Positions 1,468 to 58,767 of a stretch of DNA of 64,000 bases are shown piece after piece; the first letter of the stretch is position 1, and the number at the start of each line of letters is the position of its first letter. The translations under genes were made by a program, and so were the position numbers. The stretch lies in the NCBI GenBank assembly GCA_964016885.1, contig OZ024740.1, forward strand, positions 169,570,001-169,634,000, written 5' to 3'. The notes beneath the pieces were generated by a model. It was not told the DNA's origin. It made no database searches and saw only the letters and a list, made by a program, of their open reading frames with translations. Source of the DNA: Eledone cirrhosa (Eukaryota).

Positions 1468-1633
1468 GGGAAGAAGACGCACGAGGTGACGGAGGTCATG
1501 AAATCGCTCCCGTAAGTTTTGAATTTTTAACATATTTAAATCATTTGTGAAATAACAACTCTTAGTACAAATGCTACGTAAAGCACCCGGCTTGAGCCCC
1601 AAAAAAATTCGGACCCAAAATATATTGTTATAA

Positions 1634-2271
1634 GGCTCAAATATTCAAATATTCAACTTTGTATTGTACACTGTATATCCAAAAAAATGGCTATAAATGG
1701 AAGAAGAAGAACCCCCCCCCCCCTCCTCTCCTCTGGCTACACTATATAGGACAGCTAAACTCACCAACACCAGAAACTAGATACACCACCCACCCCATCA
1801 TCTGTGTACACTAAACACAACAGCATTTTCACCTTCACCGCCACCGCTCACTACGGCCATCATTACCACCACTATCCCATCACCGCCGCCACCACCCCTT
1901 GACTCCTTCACTGCTGCTGCCACCGCTACAGCACCATCACTACAGTAATACGGCTCAAATATTCAAATATTCAACTTTGTATTGTACACTGTATATCCAA
2001 AAAAAATAAAATGGCTATAAATGGAAGAAGAAGAACCCCCCCCTCCTCTCCTCTGGCTACACTATATAGGACAGCGAAACTCACCAACACCAGAAACTAG
2101 ATACACCACCCACCCCATCATCTGTGTACACTAAACACAACAGCATTTTCACCTTCACCGCCACCGCTCACTACGGCCATCATTACCACCACTATCCCAT
2201 CACCGCCGCCACCACCCCTTGACTCCTTCACTGCTGCTGCCACCGCTACAGCACCATCACTACAGTAATAC
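1634..2271 (+). repeat. Tandem duplication (about 318-320 bp x2) in the family B 5' leader
   Basis: 1634-1951 and 1952-2271 are near-identical; both start GGCTCAAATATTCAAATATTC and end TACAGTAATAC. Confidence 0.96.
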
Positions 2272-2846
2272 GGTCGCATCACCGCCACCACTGCCTCGGT
2301 ATCGACATCATCACCACCACTGTCTCAGTATCGCCAACGCCGCCAGTCTCTGCTGGCTGCCACTTCCACATTATAGAATTCCTACTACTAACAAAGAGGA
2401 AGGCATCAAAATATATAGATAGACTCAAAAGAAAAAAGAAAAAACAAACAACAAAAGCAGCACAGCAACAACAGCAAAAAACGAGAAAAACAAACAGAGA
2501 AAAACAAAAACAAAAAAAGACACCCCAAAAACGTAAAGAAAATAAGAATGAACAGAGAAGCAGGCGGACGGACAGAGAAGAGGGGGGAAAAAGTAAAACT
2601 TAAAAAACAAAAACTAAGTCAGACATTCGAATACTACATTACAATGAAACTTATGCTTATTCATTTTTGGGGCCCTTTCTGCCCGTGTGTTTGTTTGTTT
2701 ATGTGTGTCCGTATACAGCGTGGTGATAATGCCACACAAGGGCCAAGTGGGATGGCGGATCCACAGATGGCTATGTAAACATGCATTCGCCAATCCTCGA
2801 TAAGAGTGTTTAAATATCGAACATAAACAGTTCGAATAACGGTGAA

Positions 2847-5800
2847 ATGGAGACTAGAACGTCATGTGACAGACTCTCACCCAACAGGTGCCCCCTGGCT
2901 CAGCAGCAGGAACCTGACTGTCAACCAAATACTGCTGATGTTGGAGGAAGAAGAAGAAGGAAAGGGGCCAGAACCAACTGGACGAAAGAATTGAATAGAA
3001 CTGTTATGCAATGCTACCTGAAAAGTAACCCCAAGGAGAGGGGCTACAGGAGACGGATGCATAACATCTGGAACGAGATTGGTTTATTTAAATTAGATGA
3101 ACAAAAATTGGCCGGGCAGGCTCGGGTAATAAGAACTAATGGGTGGATAAGCGAGCTGGAACTGGAGGAACTGAGCAGAGAGAATGGCTTGGAGATGGCG
3201 GGTGTAGTATGCCAGACAAGCGAGCCGGCGGGAAATGAAGGTGAGGAGGTCCTGAGAACGGAGGAACCACCCGAAGCAGACAATGATCTGAATACTGAGA
3301 TAAATAATACCTGGAACAGAGATACGGCCACTGAGGAGATGAATGCTGACGGGCTAGGACAAGATTCGGTTGACATCCTAAATTTAGTGGTAGATGAGTT
3401 GAACAATGATAGTGGGAGACCTATGAACCTAAGATTTGTAGACAGGAAAAAGTTAAAAGAAACAACAGCTAAGGTAAACAAAGTCATCCCATACCTTGAG
3501 GCGAGGAGTCTTCACCAGTGCAACAATATCCTCAAAGCAACAGCAAATACGGTGAGGAAACTACTTGGTATAAAAGCGAGAGGAAACAACAGACAAGAAA
3601 GAGCAGAGCCGTGGTGGAAGAAGCGACTGAGTGGGCAAATCGAGGAAATGAGAAATGACATAGGAAAGCTTGAGTCACTACTGAATGGGACACTAAAAAA
3701 CATAGGCACTAAAAATAGACTGGAAATAAAATACAAAACTAGGAGTAAAAAGCTAAATATTATCATAGAGGGATTGAAGCAACGCATTGTAGCAAAGAGT
3801 GCCAAAATCAGGCGATACGAGAACAGAGTCAGTCAGTATAAACAGAACCGCATGTTCGACAACAACCAGAAGATGCTGTTTGGACAGCTTGAGGGGAAAG
3901 AAAGAGGCAACGACTTGATCCCTGGGGCGGAACAAGCTAAAACATTCTGGAGAGGAATATGGGAGCAGGATGTTAGACACAATGCCCAGGCAGGGTGGAT
4001 TGAGACAGTACAGAGGGAGATCGGTGAGCAGGCACAGCAACAGACTGATTTGAGTATCACAGTTGAAACTCTTAAGGGGCAAGCCAAAAAACTAACCAAC
4101 TGGAAATCACCAGGCCCAGATGGTGTGCAGGGGTATTGGATTAAACATTTAACATCCCTCCACCCGAAGCTGACGGCCATGTTCAATGACTGCTTGGTGT
4201 CGGGTGAGGTGCCAGAGTGGTTGACAAAAGGTACCACAGTTCTGATAATGAAAGACCGAATCAAGGGTAATGATGTTACCAACTATAGACCTATCACATG
4301 TCTGCCCGTAATGTGGAAACTGTTGACGAGCATTGTGTCTGAGGAAATCTACCATCACCTCCACACAAACAACTTGTTGCCGGACGAACAGAAAGGATGC
4401 CGAAAGAAGTCACGTGGTACAAAGGACCAGTTGCTTATTGATAAGATGGTAATGGGGAATTGCAGGAGGAGACACACTGATCTTGCCATGGGATGGATAG
4501 ACTACAGAAAGGCATTTGACATGGTGCCTCATTCCTGGATCACCAAAAGCCTGGAGATCTTCAGGGTGGCAGATAACATCAGACAGTTGCTGGGCAGGAG
4601 TATGGGGTCCTGGGAGACAGAGTTGACATCAACTGGAGTATCCTTGGGAAGCGTGAGGATCAAGAGAGGTATCTTCCAGGGAGATAGCCTGTCCCCTCTG
4701 TTGTTTGTCCTTGCCCTGATGCCCTTGACCATTATGCTGCGAAAAGTGAGAGCAGGATACAAGTTGGGAAGGGGAGAGCTTACCATCAATCACCTCCTCT
4801 TCATGGACGATCTTAAGCTCTTCGGGAAAAGTGAGAAGGAGTTGGATGTGCTTGTTGACACTGTCCGTATTTTCAGCAGTGATATATGTATGCAGTTTGG
4901 TATTGGTAAATGTGGAGTCATTGTGATGAGGAGGGGTAGGTTGAGCAGAAGTAACGGGATCCAGATACCAACAGGTGAGATGATAAAGGAAATTGACTCT
5001 GAGGAAGGATACAAGTATTTGGGCGTTCTGGAGGCTGATGGCATAAAGAACAAAAAAATGAAGGAATTGTTAAGAACTGAATACATTCGGAGAGTAAGGA
5101 GCGTATTGAAGTACATCTGAACAGCAGAAATGCCATAAGCGCAGTAAATTCCCGAGCTGTGTCTATTATTAGGTACAGTGCGGGAATTCTGAGATGGAAT
5201 GTTGCTGAACAAAAAGAAATGGATAGGAAGACTAGGAAGCTATTGACTATCTACAACATGTTCCACAAGAGGAGTGATGTCGATAGACTCTACCTAAGGA
5301 GATCTGAGGGTGGAAGAGGTCTTATCAGCATAGAGGACTGTGTTCAGATGGAGAAAAACAACCTATACAAATACGTGACCTATAGTAAGGAGCCAATGTT
5401 CAGAGCTGTACTGAAGGAGGGGACAGTAGGCCAGGGAATATCCAAGGAGGAAATAACATCAAGGAGGAAGAGCAGCCTTAAGGGAAAATCCCTTCATAGT
5501 ACCTTCTTTGAGAAAACTGAATTTAGAGATCCACAGACATGGAACTGGTTGAGAAGAGGAGACCTCAAAAAGGCTACAGAAGGAATGCTAATGGCTGCGC
5601 AGGAGCAGGCCCTCAAAACGAAGTGGTTGAAGCACCATATCTACAAGGAGGAGGCTAGCCCACTGTGCAGGATCTGGGGAGAGAGAGAGGAGACTGTGGC
5701 TCACATTGTGTCCGAGTGTAAACACCTAGCCCAGACCCACTATAAGGGCTGGAGACACGATGTGATGGGCAGGGTGATCCACTGGCACCTGTGCAAAGTA

Positions 5801-6220
5801 AACAATCTACCACATTCTGAGAAATGGTATGAGCATAGGCCAGAGGCGGTGATAGAGCTGTGGGATTTTAGGATACAGACGGACAAAAAACTGGAACACA
5901 ATAGACCTGACCTGGTGGTTGTGGACAAAGAAAAAAGATCGTGCCTGATTGTGGATGTGGCCTGCCCGTTCGACACGAGAGTGCAAGAGAAGGAGAGGGA
6001 GAAAATTAACCGATACCAGGACCTAAAGTGGGAGGTGAAAAGTATTTGGAACTGCCATGAAGTCAAAGTGATCCCGATTGTCATAGGCGCACTGGGGACT
6101 ATCTCCAAAGGTTTCCAGGGATGGTTAAAGAAAATCGGCCCCTTCACGCTTTTTGGAACGCTTCAAAAGGCATGCTTGCTTGGAACGGCAAGAACCCTCC
6201 GATACGTCCTGAATATCTGA
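2847..6220 (+). pseudogene. Family B RT-RLE polyprotein broken by a 1-nt deletion near 5112
   Basis: YRPITCL, GIFQGDSLSP and LFMDDLK RT motifs in 2847-5120; knuckle (second Cys mutated to W), RHD and RPDLVV..VDVACPFD in 5159-6220. The sister copy near 6600 has the extra base. Confidence 0.92.
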
Positions 6221-6326
6221 GGCTGCAGGTAGTGGCTTGATATTCAATCCAACGGACTTTCCAGTTAACCAACATCAATGACTGAGATTCAAGGAATAAC
6301 AATAACAATAATAATAATAATAATAA

Positions 6327-7768
6327 AGGTGTTGGATGTGCTTGTTGACACTGTCCGTATTTTCAGCAATGATATATGTATGCAATTTGGGATTAGTAAG
6401 TGAGGAGTCCTTGTGATGAAGAGGGGTAAATTGAGCAGAAGCAACGGAATCCAGGTACCAACAGGTGAGATGATAAAGGATATTGACACTGAAGAAGGAT
6501 GCAAATATTTAGGTGTTCTGGAGGCTGATGACATCAAGAACAAAACAATGAAGGAATTGATAAGATCTGAATACATTCGGAGAGTAAGGAGCGTATTAAA
6601 ATCACATCTGAACAGTAGGAATGCCATAAGTGCAGTAAATTCCAGAGCTGTGTCTATTATTAGGCACAGTGCGGGAATTCTGAGATGGAATGTTGCTGAA
6701 CAAAACAAAATGGATAGGAAGACTAGGAAGCTATTGACTATCTACATCATGTTCCACAAGAGGAGTGATGTCGATAGACTCTACTTAAAGAGATCTGAAG
6801 GTGGAAGAGGTCTAATCAGCATAGAGGACTGTGTTCAGATGGAGAAAAACAACCTGCACAAATATGTGACTGACAGTAGGGAGCCAATGCTCAGAATTGT
6901 ACTGAAGGAGAAGACAATAGACCAGGGGATGTCCAAGGAGGAAATAACAACAAGGAGCAAGAGCAACCTAAATGAAAAATCCCTTCATAGTACCTTCTTT
7001 GCGAAAACTGAATTTAGAGATCCACAGACGTGGAACTGGTTGAAAAGAGGATACCTTAAAAAGGCTACAGAAGGAATGCAAGCCCTCAGAACTAAGTGGG
7101 TGAAACAACATATTTACAGGGAGGAGGCTAGCCCTCTGTGTAGGATCTGTGGAGAGAGAGAGAGGAGCCTGTGGCTCACAGCTAGTGAGTGTGGTCTAGG
7201 TGTAAACACCTAGCCCAGACTCACTATAAAGGCGGGAGACATAATGTGATGGGCAGGGTGATCCACTCGCACCTATGCAGGGTAAACAATTTACCACATT
7301 CTGAGAAGTGGTATGAGCACAAGCCAGAGTCGGTGATAGAAAACGATCAGGTGAAGGTGCTGTGTAATTTTAGGATACAGACGGACAAGAAATTAGAACA
7401 CAATAGGCCTGACCTGGTGGTTGTGGACAAGGAAAAATGATTGTGCCTGATTGTAGAGGTAGCCTGCCCATTCGAAACAAGAGTGCAAGAAAAGTAGAGG
7501 GAGAAAATTAACCGATACCAGGATTTAAAGTGGGCGGTAAAAAGGATTTGGAACTGCCATGAAGTCAAAGTGGTCCCGATTGTCATAGGTGCACTAGTTA
7601 AAGAAGATTAGTCCAGTCCCGCCTTTTGGAACACTTCGAAAGGCATGATTGCTGGGAACAGCAAGAAACCTCCGATACGTCCTGAATATCTGAGGTTGCA
7701 GGTAGCGGCTTGATATTCATTTCAACAAACTTTCCAGTTAAATAAGATCAATGACTGAGGCTCAAAGC
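6327..7768 (+). mobile_element. 5'-truncated degenerate family B R4-like copy
   Basis: Colinear with about 4835-6290, with stops and frameshifts; TAA repeats on both sides (7769-7836 downstream). Confidence 0.93.
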
Positions 7769-7816
<48 letters not shown>

Positions 7817-7836
7817 TTAATAATAATAATAATAAT

Positions 7837-8743
7837 GCTTTCTTTATTACCCACAAAAGTTTACACAAAGTCAGACATTAAGCACAGTACATGACAATAC
7901 AGGACGGTACAAATGGGTATTTCTGCGTGTAAAAAAATAGGGCGGAGACTTCCGAGTCCATCGTGGAGAAAGCCCATTAAAAAAGGCCACGGTGACTCTG
8001 ACCACCAGGACAAGTGCCCTCTCCCATCTTTCCACCTTCAATTTACAGGCACATACTCAGAGTATACACATTCACTCGGGCCATTCTTGCCTCTCTCACC
8101 CATCTTTCAACAAAATGCTGGGATAGAGCACTTCTTTCTCTACCCTGATTTTCCTTTTCAAATGAAATTTGAAAAAGTTAATCAGGGCATCACCGAAGAG
8201 GTAACTACTCGTCTTCAGCCCTTTTAGACACGTCCACCATATTATCTCTTTCGCCATGGCCACCAGACAGATAAAAACTGCTTGCCCTTCCCGGCTAAAG
8301 GAGGAGGGCGGGACAAACCTCACGATGGACTCAGCTGATAGCCGGATCCGTTCTAAACGCGACAGTAGGTGTTCGACAAAAAACCACAAACCAGCAATGC
8401 TTGGACAATGGACGAGTGTGTGCAGGATGGTTTCGTCGCTCTGCACGCATCTCGGACATGCCTGGCTGACGGCACTTCCATGCCTGTAGAGTTATCCCGA
8501 ACTGGCAAAGCTCCTCGGTAGCACTGCCAAGCCAGGGATTTCTGGAAATTGTCCATAGGCCCAGCCCCGAAAGTTCTTCCGAAAAAATTGGCTAGATGAT
8601 TTTCGTCGACGCCTAGAGTTTTCCCAAGTACGTTGTCGCTCTTCCCCTCCAATAATCCTCTATAGAACGCCAAGGTGGAGTTTCCACCGATCACATTTCC
8701 CGACTGGTCGATGGCTGTGAGCGCCTGAAGACATTCCAGTCTC
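7837..8743 (-). mobile_element. 5'-truncated L1/Tx1-like element (ORF2 C-terminus and 3' UTR)
   Basis: Colinear with 11215-12182; AATAAA then (ATT)n on -; TAA repeat also at the truncation junction (8744-8764). Confidence 0.93.
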
Positions 8744-8764
8744 AATGATAATAATAATAATAAT

Positions 8765-9662
8765 TGAAGAAGACAATAGACCAGGGGATGTCTAAGGAGG
8801 AAATAACAACAAGGAGGAAGAGCAATCTTCATGAAAAATCCCTTCATAGCACCTTCTTTAAGGAAACGGAATTTAGAGATCCACAGACATGAAACTGGTT
8901 AAAAAGAGGAGACCTTAAGAAAGCTACAGAAGGAATGCTAATAGCTGCGCAAGGGCAAGCCCTCAGAACTAAGTGGGTGAAACACAATATTGACAAGGAG
9001 GAGGCTAGCTCACTGTGTAGGATCTGTGGACAAAGAGGGGAGACTGTGGCTCACATTATATCCGAGTGTAAACACCTAGCCCAGACTCACTATAAATGCT
9101 GGAGACATGATATGATAGGCAGGTTGATCCACTGGCATCTATGCAAACTAAACAATTTACCACATTCTGAGAAGTGGAATGAGCATAAGCCAGAGTCGGT
9201 GATAGAAAACGATCAGTTGGAGGTGCTATGGGATTTTAGGATACAGACGGACAAGAAATTAGAACACAATAGGCCTGACCTGGTGGTTTTGGACAAGGAA
9301 AAAAGATTGTGCCTGGTTGTAGATGTAGCCTGCCCATTCGACACGAGAATGCAAGAAAAGGAGAGGGAGAAAATTAACCGATACCAGGATTTAAAGTGGG
9401 AGTTAAAAAGGATTTGGAACTGCCATGAGAACAAGGTCGTCCCGATTGTCATAGGCGCACTAGGTACTATCTCAAAGAGTTTCCAAAGATGATTAAAGAA
9501 GATTAATCCAGCCCCGTTTTTTGGAACACTTCAAAAGGCATGCTTACTGGGAACAGCAAGAACCGTCCGACACGTCCTGAATGTCTGAGGCTGCAGGTAG
9601 TGGCTTGATATTCATTTCAACAAACTTTCCAGTTAAATAACATCAATGACTGAGACTCAAAG
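8765..9662 (+). mobile_element. 5'-truncated family B R4-like copy
   Basis: CRIC..ETVAHIISEC, RHD and RPDLVV motifs; same 3' UTR as the other B copies. Confidence 0.92.
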
Positions 9663-9700
9663 AATAACAACAACAATAAAAAAAAAATAATAATAATGAT

Positions 9701-10350
9701 ATAGACATGACAGAGTTGGCCAATATCTACACTGGGTAATATGTCGGCATTACAAAATCAAAGCTGAAGACAAGTGGTACAATCATCATCCTGAGGCTAT
9801 AACTGAAGGAAAAAAGTAACAATTCTCTGAGACTTTCCTGTATATATGGACAGGACCATAAAAGAAAATAGACCTGACATCATTGTAAAAGATCAACATA
9901 ACAAAGTGTGTTTATTGATAGATATGAGCATCCCATGTGATCACAATATCGCGGCAAAAGAATTTGACAAGTTACGAAAATATAAAGAACTGCTTATCGA
10001 AATTGAGAAAATGTGGCACCTCAAGGCCGTTACAGTACCAGTGATTGTGGGAGGACTGGGAATGTTCAAGAAAGGAACAGAACAATATTTGCGAATGATT
10101 CCTGGTTTACCCACTCTGCACGCGGTGCAAAACATTGTTTTCACTGGTACTGCACACGTATTGAGAAGAGCACCATCTCTGTAAGATTGATATCCCTCCT
10201 TGTATTTACATATGCATATGCACATGTGTATATATGTATACTGTTTTTTTTTTAAATTATAATCAATGTGCTGTATTAACTAGCTTACCAATGCACACTG
10301 TGAATTTATTTGCCCTAGGTGTCAGGAAGACACTCGGCATATATCTCAGA
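9701..10350 (+). mobile_element. 5'-truncated R4-like RLE element, third family (C)
   Basis: RHDRVGQYLHW.., RPDIIV..LLIDMSIP..K..KY and VPVIVGGLG motifs; divergent from A and B, with its own 3' UTR. Confidence 0.85.
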
Positions 10351-10387
10351 AACAATAATGAAAGAAAATAAAAATGACAATAATAAT

Positions 10388-11161
10388 AATATCAGCACAA
10401 GATCAGTGTCTGCCAACAAAATATCATCATGCCAACATAATAAAAAATGGATGCAACCCATTATGCCGTGTATGTCAAAAACAATCAGAGACCATTGATC
10501 ATATGATTTCAATGTGCAGTCCTATAGCTCCAACCGAATACCTAAAAAGGCACGATAGAGCTGCAGAATACATACGTTGGATAATGTGTAAGCATTTTCA
10601 CCTGTCCCATCAAAAGAATTGGTGGGAGCATCAACCACCTCCCGTACTTGAAAAAGATCACATCTTAATCTTGTGGAACTCTGGCATCCAAACAGACCAG
10701 AAAATGATGTAATACTGATGTAATACTGAGGGACTTTAAAAGGAGGGCATGCTTGCTAATTGATATGTCCGTTCCAATAGACAAGAATGTATCTATAAAC
10801 ACATTTAAAAAATTGAGCAAGTATAAAGACCTGGAGACAGAGATTGGAAAAATGTGGAAGTTGAGAACTAAAACAATACCAGTGGTTGTAGGCGCTCTAG
10901 GAATGATACCTAAGCAGTCTAATGATTACTTATCGCAAATCCCATGAAACCCGCGTATAGAAGAAATACAAAAGATAGTCCTAATGGGAACTGCCCATAC
11001 TAAGGAGGATTCTCTCAATATAAGTACATCAAAAGTGTAAACACCTAAAGACACATGTATGTGTGTATATGTGTTCTTTCTTGAACATTGCGGATCTTGT
11101 CGCTCGAGGACTGGTTATGACTTGGTGATAACTCGTATGAACATAAAGCAAGATACATGGA

Positions 11162-11162
<1 letters not shown>
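10388..11162 (+). mobile_element. 5'-truncated, more diverged family A copy
   Basis: ISAQDQCLPTK..CRVC..RHD; colinear with about 21397-22178; followed by (TAA)n at 11163-11214. Confidence 0.92.
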
Positions 11163-11216
<54 letters not shown>

Positions 11217-11479
11217 TTTCTTTATTAACCACAAGGGTTTACATAAAGTAGACATTAAGGACAGTGCAGGACAATGCAGGACGGTACAAATGGGCATTTC
11301 TGCGTGTAAAAAAAACAAAAACAGAGGATGTAACAAAAATAACAATGAAAATAACAATGAAAAAAATTCCCCAATAGGGGGGAGACTTCGGAGGGACATT
11401 TGTGGAGAAAGCCCAGTAAAAAGCCACAATGACCCTGACCACCAAGGCAAGTGCCCTCTCCCAGTTTTCCACCTTTAGT

Positions 11480-14400
11480 TTACAGATATATACTCAGAGT
11501 CGGCCCATTCACTCGGGCCATTCTTGCTTCTCTCACCCATCTTTCAACAAAATGCTGGGAAGAGAGCACTTCCTTCTCTACTCTGATTTTCCTTTTCAAA
11601 TGAAATTTGAAAAAGTCAATCAGAGCATCACCGAAGAGGTAAGTGCTCGTCTTCAGCCCTTTCAAACGTGTCCACCATACTATCTCTTTCGCCATGGCCA
11701 CCAGACAGATAAAAACTGCCTGCCCTTCCCGGCTAAAGGAGGAGGGCGGGGCAATCCTCACGATAGACTCAGATGATAGCTGGATCCGTCCTAAACGCGA
11801 CAGCAGGTGTTCGACATAAACCCACAAGTCAGCAATTTTCGGACACTGGACGAGTGCGTGCAGGACGGTTTCGTCGCTCTGCGCGCATCTCGGACATGCC
11901 CGGCTGACGGCACCTCCATGCCTGTAGAGTTTATCCCGAACTGGCAAGGCTCCTCGGTAGCACTGCCAGGCCAGAGATTTCTGGAAGTTGTCCATAGGCC
12001 CCGGCCCGAAAGTTCTTCCGAAGAGATTGGCTAGTTGATTTTCGTCGACGCCTAGAGTTTCCCCAAGTACGTCGTCGCTCTTCCCCTCCACTAATCCTCT
12101 ATAGAACGCCGAGGTGGAGTTTCCACCGATCACATTGCCCGATTGGTCGAGGGCTGTGAGCGCCTGAAGACATTCCAGTCTCCAGGCGCTCCCTCTCGGT
12201 CTTCGCTTGACCCAGGACTGCAGCTCCGTTAAGGAAACGAGCTGGGGAAAAACGCGTCTAGCAAACGGCGACCACACCTGATCACCGTCGAGGAAGAGGT
12301 GGAGATGTCGTAGCCTGAGCGCGTGCCTGCGCATCATCAGCCACGGCATGCCCAGCCCTCCACGTAGCGGGTGTTGACAACAGATGGACCGCCTGACCAT
12401 CGGAGCACGTCCCTTCCACAAAAAGCGAAAGAGCAAACGCTCCAGCGCAGTCAGGCGAGGCTTAGGACAAGGTACGACGGTTAGGCGGTAGCAGATGACA
12501 GACGCGATGTACGCGTTAGCCACCTCCGCTCGACCTTTCAGGGATAGCTTCCTCTCCGCCCATTTCTGGGTGAGAGAAGCCACCCTGCTCGTCACCTCGT
12601 CCCAGTTTTTGTCCGTCTGGAGGTCCGGACCGAACCAGACCCCTAGCAATTTAACCGGTCCGTCCGTCCAGCGCCCGACGACGCTGTTGGACGGCATGGA
12701 CCTGCCTCTCCAGGTGCCGAGCTGCAGGCCCACTGACTTTTCCTGGTTGATCATTGCTCCTGTCACCGCTTCGTATTCTCTTAGTGTAGTGCCGATCGCC
12801 TCGATGTGTTTGGCGTTCGACACCACTACGGTGACATCGTCCGCATATGCTGACACGGATCTTCCGCATCCTAGTTCGCGCGGGACTCCCCTCAACGTCT
12901 CCAGTTTGTGCAGTAATGGCTCGAGAGTCAATACGTACAAGAGGGACGAGAGGGGACATCCTTGGCGGACCGAGCGCATGATGTTGAACGGTTCCGACAG
13001 GTGACCGTTCACTCTCACCACAGAGCAGATGTCGCTGTGCATGGCAGCGATCCAGCCTCTGAAGACGGGCCCAAAGCCAGCCGCCCTCAGGACTGCCGCT
13101 AGGTAACGATGGTCGACCCTATCGAAAGCTTTCGACTGATCTAAATTGATCAAGGACCCACCCGTGCCAGGTTCCCTAGCTACCCTCTCTACGATGTATC
13201 GCATGAGGTGGAGGTTGTCGTGGATGGATCTGTCGGGAATGGCGCATGTCTGCGCCTCTCCCACCAGACCACCAACGACAAGCGCCAACCTCTTTGCTAG
13301 CACCTTGGCCAAAATCTTAAACTCTGTGTTTAGCAGAGTTATGGGCCGGAAATTGTCTATGTTATCCCCCTTGTTCGGATCCTTTCTCAGCAGTGCCACC
13401 GCTCCTCGGCTCACAGAACTGGGAATTCTCCCGTTCTGTTGCCAGTTGCAGTAGACGTCCGCCAAGAGGCCTCCGAACAAGTCTGGCATCTGTACGTAAA
13501 GTTCATAGGGCAGACCATCCAAACCAGGCGATTTACCCCTTGTGCAGCCAGTCATTGCCTCCCGTACTTCAGCGGCTGTTATCGGCTTTTCGCAACACTT
13601 CGCCTCAGTGGCCGAGAGCCGCGGCAGTCCGTCGAGGTAGACACTAAAGTCCATCCCTCTACCCGGCCCCCCGCTGCCCCCGAACAGCTGAGCGAAGTGT
13701 CGCTGAAAAGCTTCACACATTTGCCCGGGATCGAGTAGCATGCGCCCGTCGTGGTCCACCAAAGACCGGATCGTGGCTTTGTTGCCACGACGCGCCTCCG
13801 CCACTCGGGCCCATTGAACGGCTTTCGTCCCCTCGTGTCTGAGAGCACGCACCCTAGCTCTGACAACGCAGCCTTCGTGCTTTGCATTGAAGAATTGGTC
13901 AAGGGCCAATTTCGCCGCAAGCACGTCGGTCGCAATGCCTTTGCTAAGCGCCTCGTCTAATTTTCTAACTAGTTCTCCCTCTGCTCTATTTTTCTCTATT
14001 GCTAAAGCCTTACTAAACCTAATCGATTCTATTCTAATCGCTCTTTTCAGAGCAAACCACCACTTGTTGTTGACGATGGCCCCCGTCAACGCCCGCTTAA
14101 CTAGTTCGCTAATCCGGTCTCTGTAGGCCTTGCGCGCTGGTAAGGACGCGTTTAGCTTCCAGTAGCCGGGTCCTCGTCTATGAAGCCTATCTAAGTCAAG
14201 CACACAGATCACGAATTTGTGGTCCGTGTAGCTGACTATCTTGAATTGGGGACAGCCTATGCTAGACCTATCTATTTCCCTACAAAATACTCTATCTAGA
14301 TATGATCTGGATGACCCTATGCGGTTTGTCCAAGTCCACATTGGCACATTCGGGAAATCCAATCGGTACCTGTCAGACAGTTCAAAACGCCTGAGCAGGT

Positions 14401-14899
14401 TGGTGAGGCTCTTGCACCCTCCACCCCTATCCGCTAATCCCACACAGTCCCAGCGTGCATCTAAGATCCCGTTCCAGTCGCCCACTAACACTAAAGAGCG
14501 GGACGTTCCAAGAAAGGTCTCCAGACGCCGGAAGAAATCAGGCCGCCCTGCTCCTGTCGGGGCATAGACGGCCACTAGCCTGAAAGCTTGCCCGTCTCCG
14601 CTGGTCACGTCCAGCACCACCAGCTTACCCTCTGGGTCCAGGAAGATGGCCCGTATGGCGAGATCCAAACCTCTCCGAAAAAGCACAGCAACTCCTCCAC
14701 CCGATCCAGGACGGCTGGGAGATGCGTACACATCGTAGCCGCCGAAGATCGGTGCGAAGGCCCGTGCTTCGGAGATTCTGGTCTCGCTGATGGCCACTAC
14801 ATCTATGTTTAGTGACCTGAGGTCGTTGAGCAGGTGACCCTGCTTCCATGACGACCCCAAGCCACGCGCATTTATGCTGCCTATTCTGAGTGAGGTCAT
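11480..14899 (-). CDS. ORF2: APE endonuclease + reverse transcriptase + C-terminal CCHC (1139 aa)
   Basis: SINARGL, ISET, VGDWN, YLDR and TDHK APE motifs; FRPITLLN, RQGCPLS and AYADD RT motifs; CPRC..ETVLHALVQC. Confidence 0.96.
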   Translation of the reverse strand: MTSLRIGSINARGLGSSWKQGHLLNDLRSLNIDVVAISETRISEARAFAPIFGGYDVYASPSRPGSGGGVAVLFRRGLDLAIRAIFLDPEGKLVVLDVTSGDGQAFRLVAVYAPTGAGRPDFFRRLETFLGTSRSLVLVGDWNGILDARWDCVGLADRGGGCKSLTNLLRRFELSDRYRLDFPNVPMWTWTNRIGSSRSYLDRVFCREIDRSSIGCPQFKIVSYTDHKFVICVLDLDRLHRRGPGYWKLNASLPARKAYRDRISELVKRALTGAIVNNKWWFALKRAIRIESIRFSKALAIEKNRAEGELVRKLDEALSKGIATDVLAAKLALDQFFNAKHEGCVVRARVRALRHEGTKAVQWARVAEARRGNKATIRSLVDHDGRMLLDPGQMCEAFQRHFAQLFGGSGGPGRGMDFSVYLDGLPRLSATEAKCCEKPITAAEVREAMTGCTRGKSPGLDGLPYELYVQMPDLFGGLLADVYCNWQQNGRIPSSVSRGAVALLRKDPNKGDNIDNFRPITLLNTEFKILAKVLAKRLALVVGGLVGEAQTCAIPDRSIHDNLHLMRYIVERVAREPGTGGSLINLDQSKAFDRVDHRYLAAVLRAAGFGPVFRGWIAAMHSDICSVVRVNGHLSEPFNIMRSVRQGCPLSSLLYVLTLEPLLHKLETLRGVPRELGCGRSVSAYADDVTVVVSNAKHIEAIGTTLREYEAVTGAMINQEKSVGLQLGTWRGRSMPSNSVVGRWTDGPVKLLGVWFGPDLQTDKNWDEVTSRVASLTQKWAERKLSLKGRAEVANAYIASVICYRLTVVPCPKPRLTALERLLFRFLWKGRAPMVRRSICCQHPLRGGLGMPWLMMRRHALRLRHLHLFLDGDQVWSPFARRVFPQLVSLTELQSWVKRRPRGSAWRLECLQALTALDQSGNVIGGNSTSAFYRGLVEGKSDDVLGETLGVDENQLANLFGRTFGPGPMDNFQKSLAWQCYRGALPVRDKLYRHGGAVSRACPRCAQSDETVLHALVQCPKIADLWVYVEHLLSRLGRIQLSSESIVRIAPPSSFSREGQAVFICLVAMAKEIVWWTRLKGLKTSTYLFGDALIDFFKFHLKRKIRVEKEVLSSQHFVERWVREARMARVNGPTLSIYL

Positions 14900-14933
14900 G
14901 TTTAAATAGAGTGGAAAAGATGGGAAAGACCAC

Positions 14934-17027
14934 TTACCGTACTTTTGGTAGAGGAGGGATGGTTTTTACATCCCTTTTCACTTGATCGTCTGGTGAAGGG
15001 ACCGTTGAATCGTCCCTTCGGCTGGTCGTCGGCTCTTCTAAGAGAATGTCTGAATATACTCTTCGATTGATGGTTCCTCCTAGGTCCCTGAAATCACCAA
15101 CTGCGTTGGGGAATTTCGTTTTAATGTTTGTGTATTGTTTCTGTGCTATTTTTAGCAGTCTTATGTTAGTTGGCGTTTTGATTGGTGCTGGTATTATGTA
15201 GTCCTGTTGTGAAATGTCTGTGTGTTCAATTATGTAAGTCATTAGTTTCTTGTTGTGTGTGTTTATTGCCGTGCATTTGTTTTTCTGGGGGTGGGGTGTG
15301 GTTCTGCTATTTTCTTGTCGTTGTTGCTGGGTGTGTGTGTTTTGTTGTTGTGTTTGCGATGTTGGTGCTTGTGGTGGTGGTGTTGAAGGTGTTGTTGGCG
15401 GTGGGGTTGTCGCCGGTGGTGATGGTGGTGCTGGTGTGGGTGGTGATGGTGTTGGTGGTGTTGCTGCTGTGGGTCTCTTTGCAGTAGACTTTACCCTTTT
15501 CTCATTTCTTTCCTCCCTTTTCAAAGGCGACGATGCGCTGCTTCTGCGTTTGTGCCTTCTTGCGACCTTTTGCCATCCCTCTCCCACCTCACACTCCATG
15601 TCTGATTCTGTAAGGTCGGGGAGGGGTACCAGCTCCACTCTTTCACTTGTTGTTGTTGGTGATGTTTGCACTGGAGTCTCTGTTGCAGCTGCATTTGGTA
15701 TTGCTGTTGTTGTTGTTAATATTTCCACTGCTGCTGCTGTCTTTGATTTCCGTGGAATGGGTATGGGTGCCACGGACCTATCGTTCCTGGTTGCCGCTTG
15801 TCCTGTTGCTGGTAGCCGTGGAGCCGGATTCGGAAGGAGGGGGGTTTTCTCCTTTCTCAGGGTTTTCTCGTTGCAGAAGGCCCTGAGGTGAGTCTTCGAT
15901 CCACAGCGAAAGCATTTCGGGCGTTTGCCCTCAACACTTATGGGCAGTTGAGTGCCGTTATCGAAGTCTATCACATCCGGGATAGCTTCGATGCACTCCT
16001 GGTTGGTTTGGATTAGCATCTCAATGGAGGAGCCGACCCAATCTTCTCTTACTTTTTTCTGTACTTGCAGTACAGTTGTTTTGTCCTCGATTCCGACGAG
16101 GACAGACGCGGCCAGCCAAGAAGGGGTCATTCCGGGGGGGACGTGGGTCAGTTTGACCCTCACAATTTTTTGCCCGCAGTAGGAGGGCACCAACACCATT
16201 TCCTCGCTCCTTAGGGTCACTACTGATTGGGCCTTTGCCTCCTGGGGTGTGGCAAAAAGTACGTCTACGGTGGCGTATTTTTTGCCTCGGGTGATGTGCG
16301 TTTTCCTCTGCCACACAGACCCCAAGGCTTTTTGTATTTGGGCCTCTGTGGCTCTTTCCACCCTACGGGATTTTGTACTTACTGTACGGTACGTGACCGT
16401 ACAGTGCTCTTGGGTTTCGAAAAAATTTTTCGCTGCCTTGCAGATTGCTCGGTGTCCGTTCTTTGTCACCATCTTCTTCGCTTCCTCTAATTCCTCATTT
16501 GTTATGAGGATTGTTTCCAAGTTTTTCGCAATACCTGCAAATGAGATTGGTTTTTCTCTGCTGTTGTTGTTGTCGTCAGAGCTGCTGGTACTTTTGTTGC
16601 TGCAGGTACTACGACTACTGCCTCCGCCGCTGTTGCTGTGGTTGTTGTTGGTGTTGCTGCTGCTAATGCTGTTGTTGTTTATGCTGCTGGTGATGCTGTT
16701 GCGGCTGCTACTGTTGTTTTCATTGTCACTGTTGCTGTTGTTATTACGGCTGCTACTGCTATTATTCCTGACGTCAGACGAATGAACTGGGTTTTCGTAT
16801 TTCCCGCACACCTGTTTCGTCGCTGTCGTCGTCGTCGTGGAGAAACCTTGCACGCTTTGCACGAGACTTTTCTTTTCTTTCGTCGCTTGCGAAAGAGAAG
16901 GGAGGGAGAGAGACACATTTAAAGAAGGGAGGGAGAGAGACAATCTTCTCTCTGCTGTAGTGATGATTGAGGAAGAAGAAGACGGAATGAGTGGGAGTGA
17001 CGTATGAAATTTCTTTTTCGTAGCCAT
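14934..17027 (-). CDS. ORF1: gag-like nucleic-acid-binding protein with CCHC zinc knuckle (697 aa)
   Basis: CFRCGSKTHLRAFC (CX2CX4HX4C) preceded by an RRM-like region; Ser/Asn- and Pro/Thr-rich segments; ends 34 nt before ORF2. Confidence 0.9.
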   Translation of the reverse strand: MATKKKFHTSLPLIPSSSSSIITTAERRLSLSLPSLNVSLSLPSLSQATKEKKSLVQSVQGFSTTTTTATKQVCGKYENPVHSSDVRNNSSSSRNNNSNSDNENNSSSRNSITSSINNNSISSSNTNNNHSNSGGGSSRSTCSNKSTSSSDDNNNSREKPISFAGIAKNLETILITNEELEEAKKMVTKNGHRAICKAAKNFFETQEHCTVTYRTVSTKSRRVERATEAQIQKALGSVWQRKTHITRGKKYATVDVLFATPQEAKAQSVVTLRSEEMVLVPSYCGQKIVRVKLTHVPPGMTPSWLAASVLVGIEDKTTVLQVQKKVREDWVGSSIEMLIQTNQECIEAIPDVIDFDNGTQLPISVEGKRPKCFRCGSKTHLRAFCNEKTLRKEKTPLLPNPAPRLPATGQAATRNDRSVAPIPIPRKSKTAAAVEILTTTTAIPNAAATETPVQTSPTTTSERVELVPLPDLTESDMECEVGEGWQKVARRHKRRSSASSPLKREERNEKRVKSTAKRPTAATPPTPSPPTPAPPSPPATTPPPTTPSTPPPQAPTSQTQQQNTHTQQQRQENSRTTPHPQKNKCTAINTHNKKLMTYIIEHTDISQQDYIIPAPIKTPTNIRLLKIAQKQYTNIKTKFPNAVGDFRDLGGTINRRVYSDILLEEPTTSRRDDSTVPSPDDQVKRDVKTIPPLPKVR

Positions 17028-17242
17028 GTTGTTTTTTGTTTAAAATGAAATTTTGGGTACAAAACCCCAATAACTGATTATTTAACCCCGAAGGGCCAAA
17101 TAACGGACAGAAAGACCCCTCTCACGAGGAGGAGGGTGTCTTTATCAACAATTTGGTTCAAGTTTTAAACAATTTACAATTGTTTTAACGGTTAAAAATT
17201 ACTATACCTTACAGAGCCGAGCCTCCGTCAACCATGGCATTC

Positions 17243-17280
<38 letters not shown>

Positions 17281-17285
17281 GATAA
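17243..17285. repeat. (TAA)n between the head-to-head 5' ends of the Tx1-like and family A elements
   Basis: Directly visible. Confidence 0.97.
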
Positions 17286-20200
17286 GGGAAGAAGACGCAC
17301 GAGGTGGTTGAACGTCACGAAATTGCTCCCGTAAGTTTTTTGATTTTTAACATATTTAAATCAATTGTGAAAGAACAATTCTTAGCACAAATGTTGCATA
17401 AAGGCACCGAATGAGGTCCCATAAAGTTTCGGATCCATATTATATTGTTGTATCGCTCAAATATTCAATTTTGTATGATATATTTTGTATTCAAAAAAAG
17501 AAAATGGTTATAAATGGAACAAAACACCCTCTGTCTACACTATATAGAACAGCGGCAATTTCAATTTCACCAACACCAGAAACTTGATACACTACCTATC
17601 CCATCACACTAAATATAACGGCAACTTCACCGGCATCATAATAATAATTACTATTATTATTGTCTCAAATTTAAAAAAATGTTTAATTCAAATTTTACGG
17701 GAATATGTCAACACAAAATATAATGAAAATATATATTAAACATACGAACACAAACTCATAGATACTATATCAGTAACCACAACACCACCGCTGCCACCTC
17801 CCCACCACATCCATCATCGCCGCCACCACTCATTCAATGCTACTGACACTATTCCCCTGTTAACTTGAGAGAGAAAAGGGAAGGTGGTGGTAGCACTAGA
17901 CAAGAGAGAGGCTAGCAAAAGATATAAATAGATTGACTTGGTGACCTTGCCACGGACAAACGTCTACATCAACAATTATGGGACTGCTGGCTCACCCCTT
18001 CCTCACCAACAATATAAAAAGCCCCGGCACCACCACCGACATAGCCAGCAGCAATAACAGCCAACTACAACAAAAAGTATATTATATTATTGTAATGCAC
18101 TGGGTGATTGCTGGCCTTGTCCCTGGAGTGGAGACAATTATTAATAATTTCATTCTTAAGCCACGCAATGCTCACATTAAGGTACCACTCATGATAATAA
18201 CAATTTAAAAAAAACAACAAAAAGAAAACCCCGTGACCAAGAAATACCGGGATGGCGGCCGGCGGGGAATAGCCATGTCTCTAGGGGAGAACGACCCCTC
18301 TAGTCTTGGTTGACACTCGTTCTAGAAGTGGTAACACGAAAAGATTACCCCTTGGCGGTTAAGGATAAAACGCGACAAAATAAGGTAGATGTCTAATGAT
18401 GAAATCTCATACCGGATCGGCCGTCACCCGGGTAAAAAAGGGCCGCGTCCCTCAGAGAGGAACCAGACTGGGGTCGAAAAATCAGCTAATGGTTCAAACC
18501 TTCCCATCACTTCGGAGCTGGAGACCTCCCATAACCGGAATACTCCTACTGTTGGCCCTCCATGCTCACCACCAAGAAATCCAAAGAAAAAGAGAGAAAA
18601 ATGGTCAAGGGAAGATAATAAAGAAGTCCTTGAGGCTTTCTACACTGCCATGTACTACCCATCAAATACATCGAATACAGAGCAAACATATATCAACTGG
18701 AAAAAGAAACATCCCGAAAACAGAGGCTATATTGACAGTAACAAACTAGCCAATATACGAAGAAATATTGTAAGAAAAAAGTTACTAACTGATATAGAAA
18801 TTGATCAGATCAAGCTAGTAGCACAAAGTCAGCGAAGGGAAAATGAAGCATGTGTCAGTGAAAACGAGGTAAACTGTAACACTTCGAATCCCAGAGTTGG
18901 GGCGGAATCACTGGCAACAGAACAAATTAAAGAAAGGAGCGAAAAAGTGGAGGGAGTGCATGCTCAGGATGAAACTCCAAATGAAAATAATGAGATCGTA
19001 AATGATAAAGAAATGAATGAGAATGAACTTGCCAACTTGAAGGATGAAATTATGATCGAATGGATGAAAATAAAAGAATCTGACATGGGGGAACGAGACA
19101 CCCTCCATAAGATCCAGAACTCCAAACAGAACCAAAAGATAATACACAAGACTAACATAATTCTCAAAAACATTATCATCACAAACAAAATAAACATTAC
19201 TGACTTAAATCATCTCTATTATGCATCGGCTAAAGTCACCACTCACTTATGTGGAGTGAAGATGAAAAAACAAAGGAATTCCCACAAGAAATCTACTTGG
19301 CAAGATAACATCAATCGCCAAATAAACCTTCTCCGATCTGACATAGATATTTTAACAAACTATAAAGTAGGTGAACATGTTAAACAAACTAAACTTAGAA
19401 AATTGAAAAAAAAGTACAGTATAAGATCAACATGTGACATAGACATGCTGATAGAAACAATCAAGCAAAAAGTGTCGGCCAAAGCTGCTCGTATAAGGCG
19501 CTTTGAAAAACGATCTAGATTCTATAAGGACAATAATATGTTCAAAAACAACCAAAGAAACTTCTACAGAAAAATTGGTAAGTCAACAATAACTGCTAAA
19601 TCAATACCACCCAAGGAGGAAGTGCAAGAATTCTGGGAAAAGATCTGGGCCGAAGAAAAAGTTCATAACATACATGCCCCATGGATAGACAGACAAATGA
19701 AAGAAACAGCTCACCTTGAAGAACAAACATGGGAAAATATAACAGTTGAACAGCTGCGCTTGGCTCTAAGAAAAACCAGCAAATGGAAATCCCCAGGAAA
19801 AGACAAAATACAAAACTTTTGGATAAATGCCTTCACAGAGTCTCATGAGCTGTTAGCCCAACTTTACAATGAAATAGTTAAGGAGCCAGAAAAGATACCA
19901 TCATGGCTAGTTAACGGCATTACATTCCTGCTACCGAAGAATGATGAGACAAACAATCCCAAAAATTACAGACCGATAACCTGCTTGACCACAATGTATA
20001 AAATTTTAACATCAGTCCTAACTGAATACACATATGACCACCTGATAACAAATGACCTATTTCCCATTGAGCAGAAAGGGTGTAAACGAGGCTCATATGG
20101 CTGTAAGGATCAGCTTCTGGTTAACAAAATGATACTGGAAGATTGTCATAATAGACACAAAAATCTATCGATTGCTTGGATAGATTATAAAAAAGCATTT

Positions 20201-22179
20201 GATAGTTTGCCACACAGTTGGATTGAAAAATGTTTAGAGATTTTCAAAATATCCCCCGTTGTCAGGAGGTTTTTGTCATTCAGTATGAGGACATGGAGAA
20301 CGACACTCCTTTTGAATAGTGAAACAAAATCACTGGAAGCTGGAGAAGTTAACATTAATTGTGGAATTTTTCAGGGTGACTCTTTATCACCGCTTTTATT
20401 ATGCATCGCACTTATACCATTAAGTAAAATGCTCAATGAAACAAAACATGGATATAGAGTCTATGACAAAACCATTAATCACCTGTTCTACATGGATGAC
20501 CTGAAACTATTTTCAAAAAATGATGAACAATTGCAAGGGCTATTATCCACTGTGAAGCAGTTCAGTGATGACATTAAAATGGAGTTTGGACTGGATAAAT
20601 GCGCCAAAGCAACGTTCACCAGAGGAAAGCTGCTGAAGAGTTCAGACATTAATCTTGATCGGGGGAACGTGATAAGAGAGCTTGATCAAGAACAAACTTA
20701 CAAATATCTAGGTGTTTGTGAAGGAGACGGAATCAAGCACTCGACAATGAGGGAAAGGATAAGGAAGGAATGTTACCGCAGAGTCAGAGCAATCTTAAGA
20801 ACGGAATTGAATGCAAGGAATAGGATCGATGCCATAAACACGCTTGCCATACCAGTAGTAACCTACAGTTACAATGTCATCAACTGGTCAAGCACAGAGA
20901 TCCGTAGGCTCGATACAAAAATCCGAAAATTCTTAACCATGCACAGAATGCATCACCCTAAGGCAGACATAGATAGAATATATCTCCCTAGGAAAGAAGG
21001 AGGACGTGGGTTAATCCAGTTAGACATTGCGTTGAAAACTGCAACAATTGGATTATCCACATATCTAAGGGAATCACATGATTGGATGATCAAACTCGTT
21101 TTGAAACACGAAAGCACCAAAAGATCATATTCCATTACAAAAGATGCACAAAGATACAGTAATGGACTACAAATTTCAGAAGTCCCATTTACTGCTGAAA
21201 TGGAAAACACAGAAAAAGCAAAGCAGGTAAAAGTAACTGCAAAGAAAGAACTGCTACAGAAACTGGCTAAGAAATGGCAAGAAAAGCCTCTGTATGGAAA
21301 ATACCCAGAGCGAGCTAACAATCCTGATGTTGACAAAACTTTAACCCATCAGTGGTTGGCATCCTCTGGACTGAAATCGGAGACTGAAGGACTGATTATA
21401 TCCGCACAAGATCAGTGTCTGCCAACAAAAAATTACCAAGCCAACATAATAAAAAATGGGTGCAGCCCACTATGCCGTGTATGCAAAAAACAACCAGAGA
21501 CCATTGACCATATAATTTCAATGTGCAGTCCTATAGCTCCAACCGAATACCTAAACAGGCATGACAGAGCTGCACAATACATACATTGGATAATGTGTAA
21601 GCATTTTGACCTGCCCCATCAAAAGAATTGGTGGGAGCATCAACCACCTCCCATACTTGAAAAAGATCACATCTCAATCTTGTGGAACTTTAGCATCCAA
21701 ACAGACCGAAAAATAGATGCAAATAGACCTGATATAATATTGAAGGACTTTAAAAAGAGGGTATGCCTGCTAATTGATATGTCTGTTCCAATAGACAAGA
21801 ATGTATCTATAAAAACATTTGAAAAATTGAGCAAGTATAAGGACCTGGAGATAGAAATTGGAAAAATGTGGAAATTGAGAACTAAAACAATACCAGTGGT
21901 TGTAGGCGCTCTGGGAATGATACCTAAGGGGTCTAACGACTACTTATCGCAAATCCCAGGAAACCCGCGTATAGGAGAAATACAAAAGATAGTACTAATG
22001 GGAACTGCCCATATACTAAGGAAGATCCTGTCAATATAAGTACATCACAAGTCTAAACACTAAGGATGCATGTGTGAATATGTGTGTTCTTTCTTGAACA
22101 TGGCGGACCTTGTTGTCTCTTGAGGTCACTGGTTGTGACTTGGTGATAACTCGTATAAACATAAAGCAAGATAAATGCA

Positions 22180-22181
<2 letters not shown>
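17286..22181 (+). mobile_element. Full-length, apparently intact R4/Dong-like element, family A (about 4.9 kb)
   Basis: Same 5' terminus as family B, 1.1-kb leader, single intact ORF, 3' UTR, then TAA/GAT repeats at 22182-22301. Confidence 0.94.
18389..22039 (+). CDS. Single-ORF RT + CCHC + restriction-like endonuclease (1216 aa)
   Basis: YRPITCL, GIFQGDSLSP, FYMDDLK; CRVC..ETIDHIISMC; RHD; RPDII..IDMSVP; K..KY. No APE domain or N-terminal zinc fingers, as in the R4 clade. Confidence 0.96.
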   Translation: MSNDEISYRIGRHPGKKGPRPSERNQTGVEKSANGSNLPITSELETSHNRNTPTVGPPCSPPRNPKKKREKWSREDNKEVLEAFYTAMYYPSNTSNTEQTYINWKKKHPENRGYIDSNKLANIRRNIVRKKLLTDIEIDQIKLVAQSQRRENEACVSENEVNCNTSNPRVGAESLATEQIKERSEKVEGVHAQDETPNENNEIVNDKEMNENELANLKDEIMIEWMKIKESDMGERDTLHKIQNSKQNQKIIHKTNIILKNIIITNKINITDLNHLYYASAKVTTHLCGVKMKKQRNSHKKSTWQDNINRQINLLRSDIDILTNYKVGEHVKQTKLRKLKKKYSIRSTCDIDMLIETIKQKVSAKAARIRRFEKRSRFYKDNNMFKNNQRNFYRKIGKSTITAKSIPPKEEVQEFWEKIWAEEKVHNIHAPWIDRQMKETAHLEEQTWENITVEQLRLALRKTSKWKSPGKDKIQNFWINAFTESHELLAQLYNEIVKEPEKIPSWLVNGITFLLPKNDETNNPKNYRPITCLTTMYKILTSVLTEYTYDHLITNDLFPIEQKGCKRGSYGCKDQLLVNKMILEDCHNRHKNLSIAWIDYKKAFDSLPHSWIEKCLEIFKISPVVRRFLSFSMRTWRTTLLLNSETKSLEAGEVNINCGIFQGDSLSPLLLCIALIPLSKMLNETKHGYRVYDKTINHLFYMDDLKLFSKNDEQLQGLLSTVKQFSDDIKMEFGLDKCAKATFTRGKLLKSSDINLDRGNVIRELDQEQTYKYLGVCEGDGIKHSTMRERIRKECYRRVRAILRTELNARNRIDAINTLAIPVVTYSYNVINWSSTEIRRLDTKIRKFLTMHRMHHPKADIDRIYLPRKEGGRGLIQLDIALKTATIGLSTYLRESHDWMIKLVLKHESTKRSYSITKDAQRYSNGLQISEVPFTAEMENTEKAKQVKVTAKKELLQKLAKKWQEKPLYGKYPERANNPDVDKTLTHQWLASSGLKSETEGLIISAQDQCLPTKNYQANIIKNGCSPLCRVCKKQPETIDHIISMCSPIAPTEYLNRHDRAAQYIHWIMCKHFDLPHQKNWWEHQPPPILEKDHISILWNFSIQTDRKIDANRPDIILKDFKKRVCLLIDMSVPIDKNVSIKTFEKLSKYKDLEIEIGKMWKLRTKTIPVVVGALGMIPKGSNDYLSQIPGNPRIGEIQKIVLMGTAHILRKILSI

Positions 22182-27626: not shown

Positions 27627-27835
27627 GGGGATTCTTTTCTTTGTTTTTGTGCCTCTCCTTTGTTCTGTCCTACGCCATCTTGTTTTTATTGTGTGATTAA
27701 AATAGTATTAGTTTTTTCCCCATAGCATAAATTAATTATTTTCACTACACCGGATATTTTAGCAATAATTTCATTTCTTTTCATGTGAATGGCATGATAT
27801 ACTTCCTAAATGATTACTGCCATTGCATACATAAT

Positions 27836-27896
<61 letters not shown>

Positions 27897-27899
<3 letters not shown>

Positions 27900-32972: not shown

Positions 32973-33157
32973 TGTTTCTACTTTAGGCACAAGGCCAGCA
33001 ATTACCCACTGCATCACTGGTACTTTATTTTATCGACCCCGTAAGGATGAAAGGCAAAGTCAAACTCGGCGGGATTTGAACTCAGATCGTAAAGGGACGT
33101 AACTATGCTGGAAAGCATGGCGTCCGACCCTCTACCGATACTGCCAATCCACCGCCC
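32973..33157 (-). mobile_element. tRNA-derived SINE with 14-bp TSD
   Basis: B-box GAGTTCAAATCCC on -; TTCAGACATATAAT at 32959-32972 and 33158-33171; close sister copy at 52231. Confidence 0.88.
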
Positions 33158-52230: not shown

Positions 52231-52422
52231 AGGCGGTGGATTGGAGTATCGGTAGAGGGTCGGACGCCATGCTTTGCCACATAGAGTTACGGCCCGTTAC
52301 GGTCTGAGTTAAAATCCAGCCGAGGTTAACTTTGCCTTTCATCCTTACGGGGGTCGATAAAATAAAGTACCAGTAATGCACTGGGATAATTGCTGGCCTT
52401 GTGCCAAAAGAAGAAACAATTA
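52231..52422 (+). mobile_element. tRNA-derived SINE, sister of 32973-33157
   Basis: Highly similar to the reverse complement of the 33-kb copy along its whole length. Confidence 0.88.
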
Positions 52423-57961: not shown

Positions 57962-58149
57962 CATATATACACACACACACACACACACATACATTAATAA
58001 CAATAATAATAATAATAATAACAACAATAATAATAACAACAATAATAATAACGACAACAACAATAATAATATACATATACACATATATATACACACACAC
58101 GCACACATATAAGCATATCTACACACACACACACACGCGCGATAGCAAC

Positions 58150-58712: not shown

Positions 58713-58733
58713 ATACATACATACATACATACA

Positions 58734-58767
<34 letters not shown>

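Follow-up and report, generated by a model that had tools for sequence, protein, structure and literature searches.

Several long interspersed elements (LINEs) with an apurinic-type endonuclease (APE) insert into microsatellites: in the accessible parts of PMC4494074 and PMC3812793, Kibi occupies (TC)n, Koshi (TTC)n and crocodilian Tx1 families (TTCC)n/(TTTC)n. TAA repeats are the target of Dong, which the available text of PMC3812793 classes among the APE elements, and Tx1-Mar LINEs have a target in common with short interspersed elements (SINEs) named SINEU, the SINE preference being 13-90% in the portions of PMC4494074 at hand. For Octopus vulgaris, 13 active L1-Tx1 and 5 Dong-R4 families are given, with no target in the accessible text of PMC13282606. 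Here we analysed a 64,000-nt window (the whole stretch, to which all coordinates refer) of the 3.0-Gb Eledone cirrhosa genome (contig OZ024740.1, 169,570,001 to 169,634,000), which contains a full-length LINE flanked by TAA repeats. Quite probably this is a recently amplified LINE of the L1 group (likely Tx1-type), which enters Y^ATTAT in a single orientation and generates duplications that mostly measure 9-20 bp, the APE likely nicking at AAT^R and the nicked strand pairing with AUU. The literature searched, as far as its accessible text goes, holds no APE or Tx1 family with an ATTAT/(ATT)n target and no such SINE pairing; the family, possibly together with its target, may already be catalogued in Repbase or Dfam, and the figure labels and supplements of PMC4494074 may list more targets.

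Two LINE copies, one full-length and one truncated, lie on the minus strand of the window. A sequence-only reading had placed both correctly, and repeat calls bear out its description of TAA repeats at both ends, no poly(A) and an AATAAA running nearly into (ATT)n. Both open reading frames (ORFs) of the full copy are open, as that reading held. It was also right to treat the truncated copy as independent: the copy is only ~90% identical to the full one and therefore, judged by sequence, is a separate, older insertion. The (AAT)7 at its 5' end also adjoins a 5'-truncated element with a restriction-like endonuclease (RLE) at 8772, so that this junction is attributable to either element, and the claim is carried by genome-wide data.

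Exact patterns located 8,028 LINE 3' ends and 2,413 5' ends of subfamily A, to which the window copy belongs. ATT directly follows 7,601 of the 3' ends, and three ATT units follow 6,298; TTATTATT precedes 2,340 of the 5' ends. For a sample of consecutive copies, we took the 100 sites that head the list for contig C1. At least four ATT units stand downstream of 86 of them, compared with 4-11% of ATTAT sites in background DNA, and the opposite-strand repeat follows none of the 100, in agreement with the fixed orientation proposed earlier. All 53 full-length copies have at least three ATT units upstream (about 1% of random positions do), and indeed at least five. The junction reads ATT|G in 51 of the 53, although duplication lengths span all three phases, and the first base after the 5' tract is G in all subfamilies. 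Probably, the repeats at full-length 5' ends are partly the element's own 5' sequence. Raw reads deposited under another organism label show the same junction, 4,893 of them continuing from the LINE 3' end into (TAA)n; reads aligned on the 5' end revealed no loose end at 17242 among the matches listed.

The ATT repeat is target and not tail, as the sequence-only reading had argued, because the duplications flanking truncated copies in unique DNA open with the first ATT, and no repeat has been added. These sites were taken from copies without a tract in the 3' flank (40 of 201 matches; many of the others belong to a tandem satellite on C27). In that satellite, at about 4.79-6.27 Mb, the last ~90 bases of the LINE recur with a 96-bp, sometimes 86-bp, period in at least 56 units. 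Among 99 non-full-length junctions tested, 19 have a readable duplication, each starting with ATT and 18 spanning 4-19 bp; one of the 19, L111, is a tandem rather than a target duplication. Position +4 is A in 16 and +5 is T in 18 of the 19. Young truncated copies (95-99% identical) also occupy isolated ATTAT with clean duplications, and in L201 a unique duplication of 17 bp precedes 13 units. The target is the short motif Y^ATTAT and not the microsatellite only. Of the (TAA)n specificity claimed from sequence, the enrichment in tracts stands, but the specificity itself is for the short motif, and unique DNA is used too, chiefly by a partner SINE.

This SINE is 186 bp long, its head is presumably tRNA-like, and its 3' end resembles that of the LINE: over the final 30 nt, the similarity is to LINE ends (p 0.0003-0.003) and not to RLE ends (p 0.21, 0.76). 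There are at least 134,138 copies genome-wide, 78-97% identical to a single reference copy. Around a common loop, CTTGT, the stem is AACC/GGTT in young LINEs (152 copies), GGCC/GGCC or AGCC/GGCC in older LINEs (10 copies) and TGGC/GCCW in the SINE (109 copies), hence different on both sides in all three. Duplications were found at 40 of 104 SINE junctions; they measure 8-20 bp and all start with ATT, mostly ATTAT (+4 = A in 38, +5 = T in 36). The preceding base is C in 24 of the 40 against a background of 20% (p 2e-8), the SINE's own base there being A, and it is never G. The SINE lies mostly in unique DNA. Only 2 of 41 unselected copies sit in tracts of at least four units, equal to background, and three ATT units follow 22,237 copies genome-wide, which is at most 17% compared with 78% for the LINE. 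Since 17 of 25 LINE fragments below 500 bp, comparable in size to the SINE, still lie in tracts, length-dependent selection alone does not explain this gap. A 3' sequence and hairpin in common (with a fold energy not above that of shuffles) and the same insertion signature, as asked of stringent LINE/SINE pairs, suggest that the LINE likely also mobilises the SINE. In five loci (L086, L107, L119, L131, L147), one and the same ATT site of subfamily B ORF1 is occupied by a SINE; the duplication measures 15-20 bp and the 5' ends differ, and this is either an inherited insertion or a hot spot.

Among solved structures, human L1 ORF2p is closest to ORF2 (E 3e-52; R2, E 1e-21). The APE catalytic residues align with those of the human L1 endonuclease (EN), and the specificity loop has the same length as in L1 EN, two residues shorter than the loop of the LTX chimera. 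A single-sequence fold of the domain reached a pLDDT of 37 and was not used. ORF2 has the L1-group layout of N-terminal APE, reverse transcriptase (RT) and C-terminal zinc finger with L1 nearest, and copies show 5' truncation and target duplications of variable length. ORF1 has no Pfam match at the cut-off; its neighbours in the Atlas are CCHC, RRM and ZCCHC3-type proteins at 0.89-0.94. A Type I ORF1, with RRM plus CCHC and not Transposase_22, is the mark of the Tx1 clade in the available text of PMC5203782. The repeat preference (86 of 100 flanks) exceeds the >20% set for Tx1 in PMC4494074. The (TC)n or (TTC)n target of Kibi and Koshi is not that of this LINE, as ATT and then two CTT/GTT units follow 36 of 8,028 3' ends; the poly(A) tail and Transposase_22 ORF1 of vertebrate L1 are likewise absent. 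The LINE belongs to the L1 group and is likely Tx1-type, the latter assignment resting on domains and not on a named phylogeny. Relatives in metagenomes (80 loci) are mostly 23-33% identical, with no (ATT)n at the ends of the first 38 inspected, an uninformative result.

Of the 100 sampled copies, 53 are full-length and 47 are not; ORF2 is intact in 12 of the 53 and both ORFs in 8. Identity to the window copy reaches 99% or more in ten of 26 copies of subfamily A. From one subfamily to another (A, B and C), the 5' untranslated region (UTR) and ORF1 diverge (core identity 38-53%). As ORF2 is nevertheless 96% identical between A and B, repeated 5' replacement is suggested. Older relatives (74-77% identical; L035, L039, L057, L064, L092, L133, L135) have GGCC stems and likewise terminate in ATT repeats; the target is therefore older than the present subfamilies.

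In the mechanism we favour, the APE would first nick the AAT strand, at AAT^R, the exact position perhaps lying a few bases inside ATT. The primer on the nicked strand would pair with the AUU that follows the hairpin at the RNA 3' end, a hairpin that ORF2p would bind in LINE or SINE RNA alike. Reverse transcription would begin at the base ahead of the first AUU, so that no poly(A) or repeat tail would be copied, and the second nick would fall ~15 bp on. Because ATT|G prevails despite duplications in all phases, the full-length RNA likely starts with some repeat, and a short leader of this kind, annealing in register, may give the uniform junction. L201 and the lack of CTT duplications beside (CTT)n fit a leader of few units. 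A long obligatory leader is ruled out, since at 17 of 62 sites no more than 3-5 ATT units stand between CTT runs and the 5' G, and at 2 sites there are none (hand count); this spacing limits the leader to ~3-5 units. No Rfam ribozyme and no other credible RNA family was found in positions 1-32000. Cleavage of the RNA 10-30 nt past AAUAAA may leave several AUU units on LINE RNA, which would direct it preferentially to long tracts; SINE RNA, limited to roughly AUUAU, could use any ATTAT. We put forward tentatively, as a possibility rated somewhat below even, that one APE-type enzyme routes two RNAs by the repeat they carry, LINE RNA to (ATT)n tracts and SINE RNA to any ATTAT, and that an undescribed LINE thereby drives a SINE that ranks among the most abundant of this genome.

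Alternatively, the endonuclease, together with other ORF2 domains, might read long (AAT)n itself, like Kibi and Koshi; in that case, an older LINE relative of lower stringency would account for the SINE pattern, and the part of RNA pairing would be minor. The SINE stem GGC/GCC is nearer to the older LINE relatives, the 78-97% identity of SINE copies points the same way, and a weaker SINE preference has a precedent in Tx1/SINEU, as far as PMC4494074 is accessible. We nevertheless regard this account as unlikely, because the young truncated LINE copies at isolated ATTAT have clean duplications, and motif and duplication length are common to LINE and SINE. It is less probable still that insertion occurs at any ATTAT and that LINE copies outside tracts are lost by selection or recombination: unique-site LINE copies are mostly short and the SINE occupies tracts at background frequency, both in favour of this reading, but the short LINE fragments that remain in tracts speak against it.

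That (ATT)n is a tail made by the element, with upstream repeats derived from copies landing in each other's tails, would agree with the head-to-tail neighbour seen in 36 of 100 copies and with L163, which suggests that 3' flanking repeat may be carried along. This idea is largely refuted by the unique-site copies without added repeat and appears very improbable: post-tract sequence recurs at the 5' junction in just 1 of 100 copies, with 2 units only, and some copies show ATT and then ACT, GTT or CTT runs. An artefact of assembly or repeat collapse, conceivable in a repeat-dense region, is hardly credible given thousands of copies with different flanks, and is refuted by the same junction in the raw reads.

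Several observations weigh against insertion at Y^ATTAT by the mechanism preferred here. The 5'-junction repeat expected from the sequence-only reading, present in every full-length copy, is found in only 15 of the 47 non-full-length copies (hand sorting; 14 by script). The rest comprise 7 with a short ATT-starting match or duplication, 2 at (CTT)n, 7 abutting a truncated RLE 5' end (probably through deletion during one insertion), 8 mosaic or interrupted and 8 unexplained. The 40 unique-site copies were picked by a pattern requiring ATT, and the first three bases therefore cannot count as separate evidence. Beside (CTT)n, exactly one ATT stands on the 3' side in 17 of 22 sites among the matches listed, a pattern not foreseen from Y^ATTAT, and all but one full-length case lack the CTT duplication that would be expected; copies with these flanks do not cluster on the tree. 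The duplication of L163 starts with TTTCTTC. The 3' hairpin is no more stable than shuffles (z -0.95, +0.31, -1.22), and the SINE may have been moved by the older LINE relatives, whose stem its own resembles more.

With respect to the (CTT)n flanks, a self-perpetuating lineage of ATT(CTT)n copies was considered and is unsupported (17 label changes on the tree, 18.3 +/- 1.3 in shuffles). At nine loci (L131, L132, L137, L139, L145, L149-L151, L038) we noted an old opposite-strand family, which we take to be RTE-like, ending in (AAG)n; the LINE often lies at the far end of its (AAG)n tail, with exactly one ATT. Insertion of this family after the LINE is ruled out, because it is older (70-88% between copies) and no remnant of an ATT tract was seen behind it.

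The RLE neighbours in the same tracts form two single-ORF families closest to R2. They have RT, CCHC and RLE in one ORF and a TAA target, as in Dong/R4, and Dong/R4-like is the label we presume for the full-length RLE element of the window. AAT follows their 3' ends in 22 of 24 and 54 of 59 cases (76 of 83 overall) and precedes their 5' ends in 9 of 9 and 8 of 8, in overlapping sets from loci picked for the LINE and hence not unbiased. The proposal that an APE and an RLE enzyme use one microsatellite holds insofar as the RLE families and the LINE lie in opposite orientation within the same tracts; under target-primed reverse transcription, this would place the first nicks on opposite strands, which is the inferred part of that proposal. 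Nicks by the RLE families would fall on the complementary strand, and the families would thereby nest into mixed arrays. The 5' ends of the two RLE families are 72% similar (1468-1833, 17286-17631), although their ORFs gave no DNA match. In the copy at 1468-6295, 320 bp of the 5' UTR are duplicated (1630-2273), and at L097 and L155 the 3' ends of family 2 are followed by (ATC)n or (AAG)n, not (AAT)n. Elsewhere in the window, 58149-58826 and 27814-28557 (both minus) are fragments of other RT-type elements, one with C2H2-like zinc-finger motifs, and a 154-aa ORF at 54628-55092 (minus) resembles a host exon.

Table 1. Features of the window, with strand and basis of assignment.
Feature	Positions	Strand	Basis
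Full-length LINE, subfamily A, 6,028 bp	11215..17242	-	ends set by 100 genomic copies
ORF1, 697 aa, RNA-binding-like region and one CCHC knuckle (15873-15914)	14934..17027	-	open frame
ORF2, 1,139 aa: APE endonuclease aa 22-210, RT aa 511-754, zf-RVT aa 974-1026	11480..14899	-	open frame and domain search
Predicted 3' hairpin AACC-CTTGT-GGTT; loop common to older LINE relatives and SINE	11227..11239	-	
AATAAA, ends 6 nt ahead of first ATT	11221..11226	-	
Target tract at LINE 3' end, (TAA)17 = (ATT)17 in element sense	11163..11214	.	repeat call
Tract at LINE 5' end, (AAT)12.7, junction ATT|G	17243..17280	.	repeat call
5'-truncated older LINE copy, ~90% identical to full copy	7837..8743	-	
Tract at 3' end of truncated LINE copy, (ATA)22.7	7769..7836	.	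repeat call
(AAT)7 between truncated LINE copy and truncated RLE element	8744..8764	.	
Full-length RLE element (R2-like RT, ORF 18389-22039), orientation opposite to LINE	17281..22180	+	
Second RLE family, frameshifted copy	1468..6295	+	
Further fragments of second RLE family	6326-7765 and 8772-9663		
Fragment of first RLE family	10386-11159		
Partner SINE copy in unique DNA, 14-bp duplication starting ATTAT	32973..33155	-	
Second SINE copy, without clear duplication	52233..52418	+	
Uninterrupted paralogue of degenerate repeat hosting truncated copies in L020, L046, L067, L142	57986..58072	.	by-eye comparison

The LINE adds a target motif to the known site-specific APE LINEs and places two endonuclease classes on what would be opposite strands of one microsatellite within one genome. 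L1-clade SINE/LINE pairs with a common tail are rare (3 of 58 pairs in the accessible part of the PMC3747384 survey), and the LINE would be the likely driver of a SINE with more than 134,000 copies. If routing by the RNA repeat is true, the pair offers a natural system for testing whether RNA directs the choice of site during target-primed reverse transcription. With intact, 99%-identical copies, a five-base motif and thousands of natural junctions, endonuclease choice and RNA-DNA pairing can be tested directly against each other.

In comparison with known systems, the LINE resembles human L1/Alu in ORF2 homology, in the length of the specificity loop and in the T/purine nick step and duplication length; it differs in having no poly(A), AAT instead of TTTT before the nick, a CCHC-type ORF1 and an apparently stringent 3' recognition. 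Dong, which we take to be an RLE element of the R4 clade despite its listing as an APE element, has the same microsatellite but another endonuclease class and the opposite orientation. Plant L1/ZmSINE and Chlamydomonas L1-1_CR/SINEX-3 likewise combine an L1-clade LINE and a SINE with a common 3' hairpin; however, they have poly(A) ends and no site specificity reported in the accessible text of PMC3747384, and the present pair is from an animal. R2 RNA begins in the upstream target, and its annealing explains uniform 5' junctions in the available part of PMC3774820; the 5' junctions of our LINE are similarly uniform, but here no ribozyme family matches and the leader is inferred. Tx1-Mar and SINEU, as far as described, are linked by target and 5' head, whereas the present pair is linked by the 3' hairpin tail, with a presumably tRNA-type SINE head and a five-base motif. 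Kibi, Koshi and the crocodilian Tx1 families are APE-type with a Tx1-like layout and a microsatellite target, and (CTT)n occurs as a minor flank of the present LINE; they are set apart from it by its target, Y^ATTAT and (ATT)n, which the accessible text gives for no APE element.

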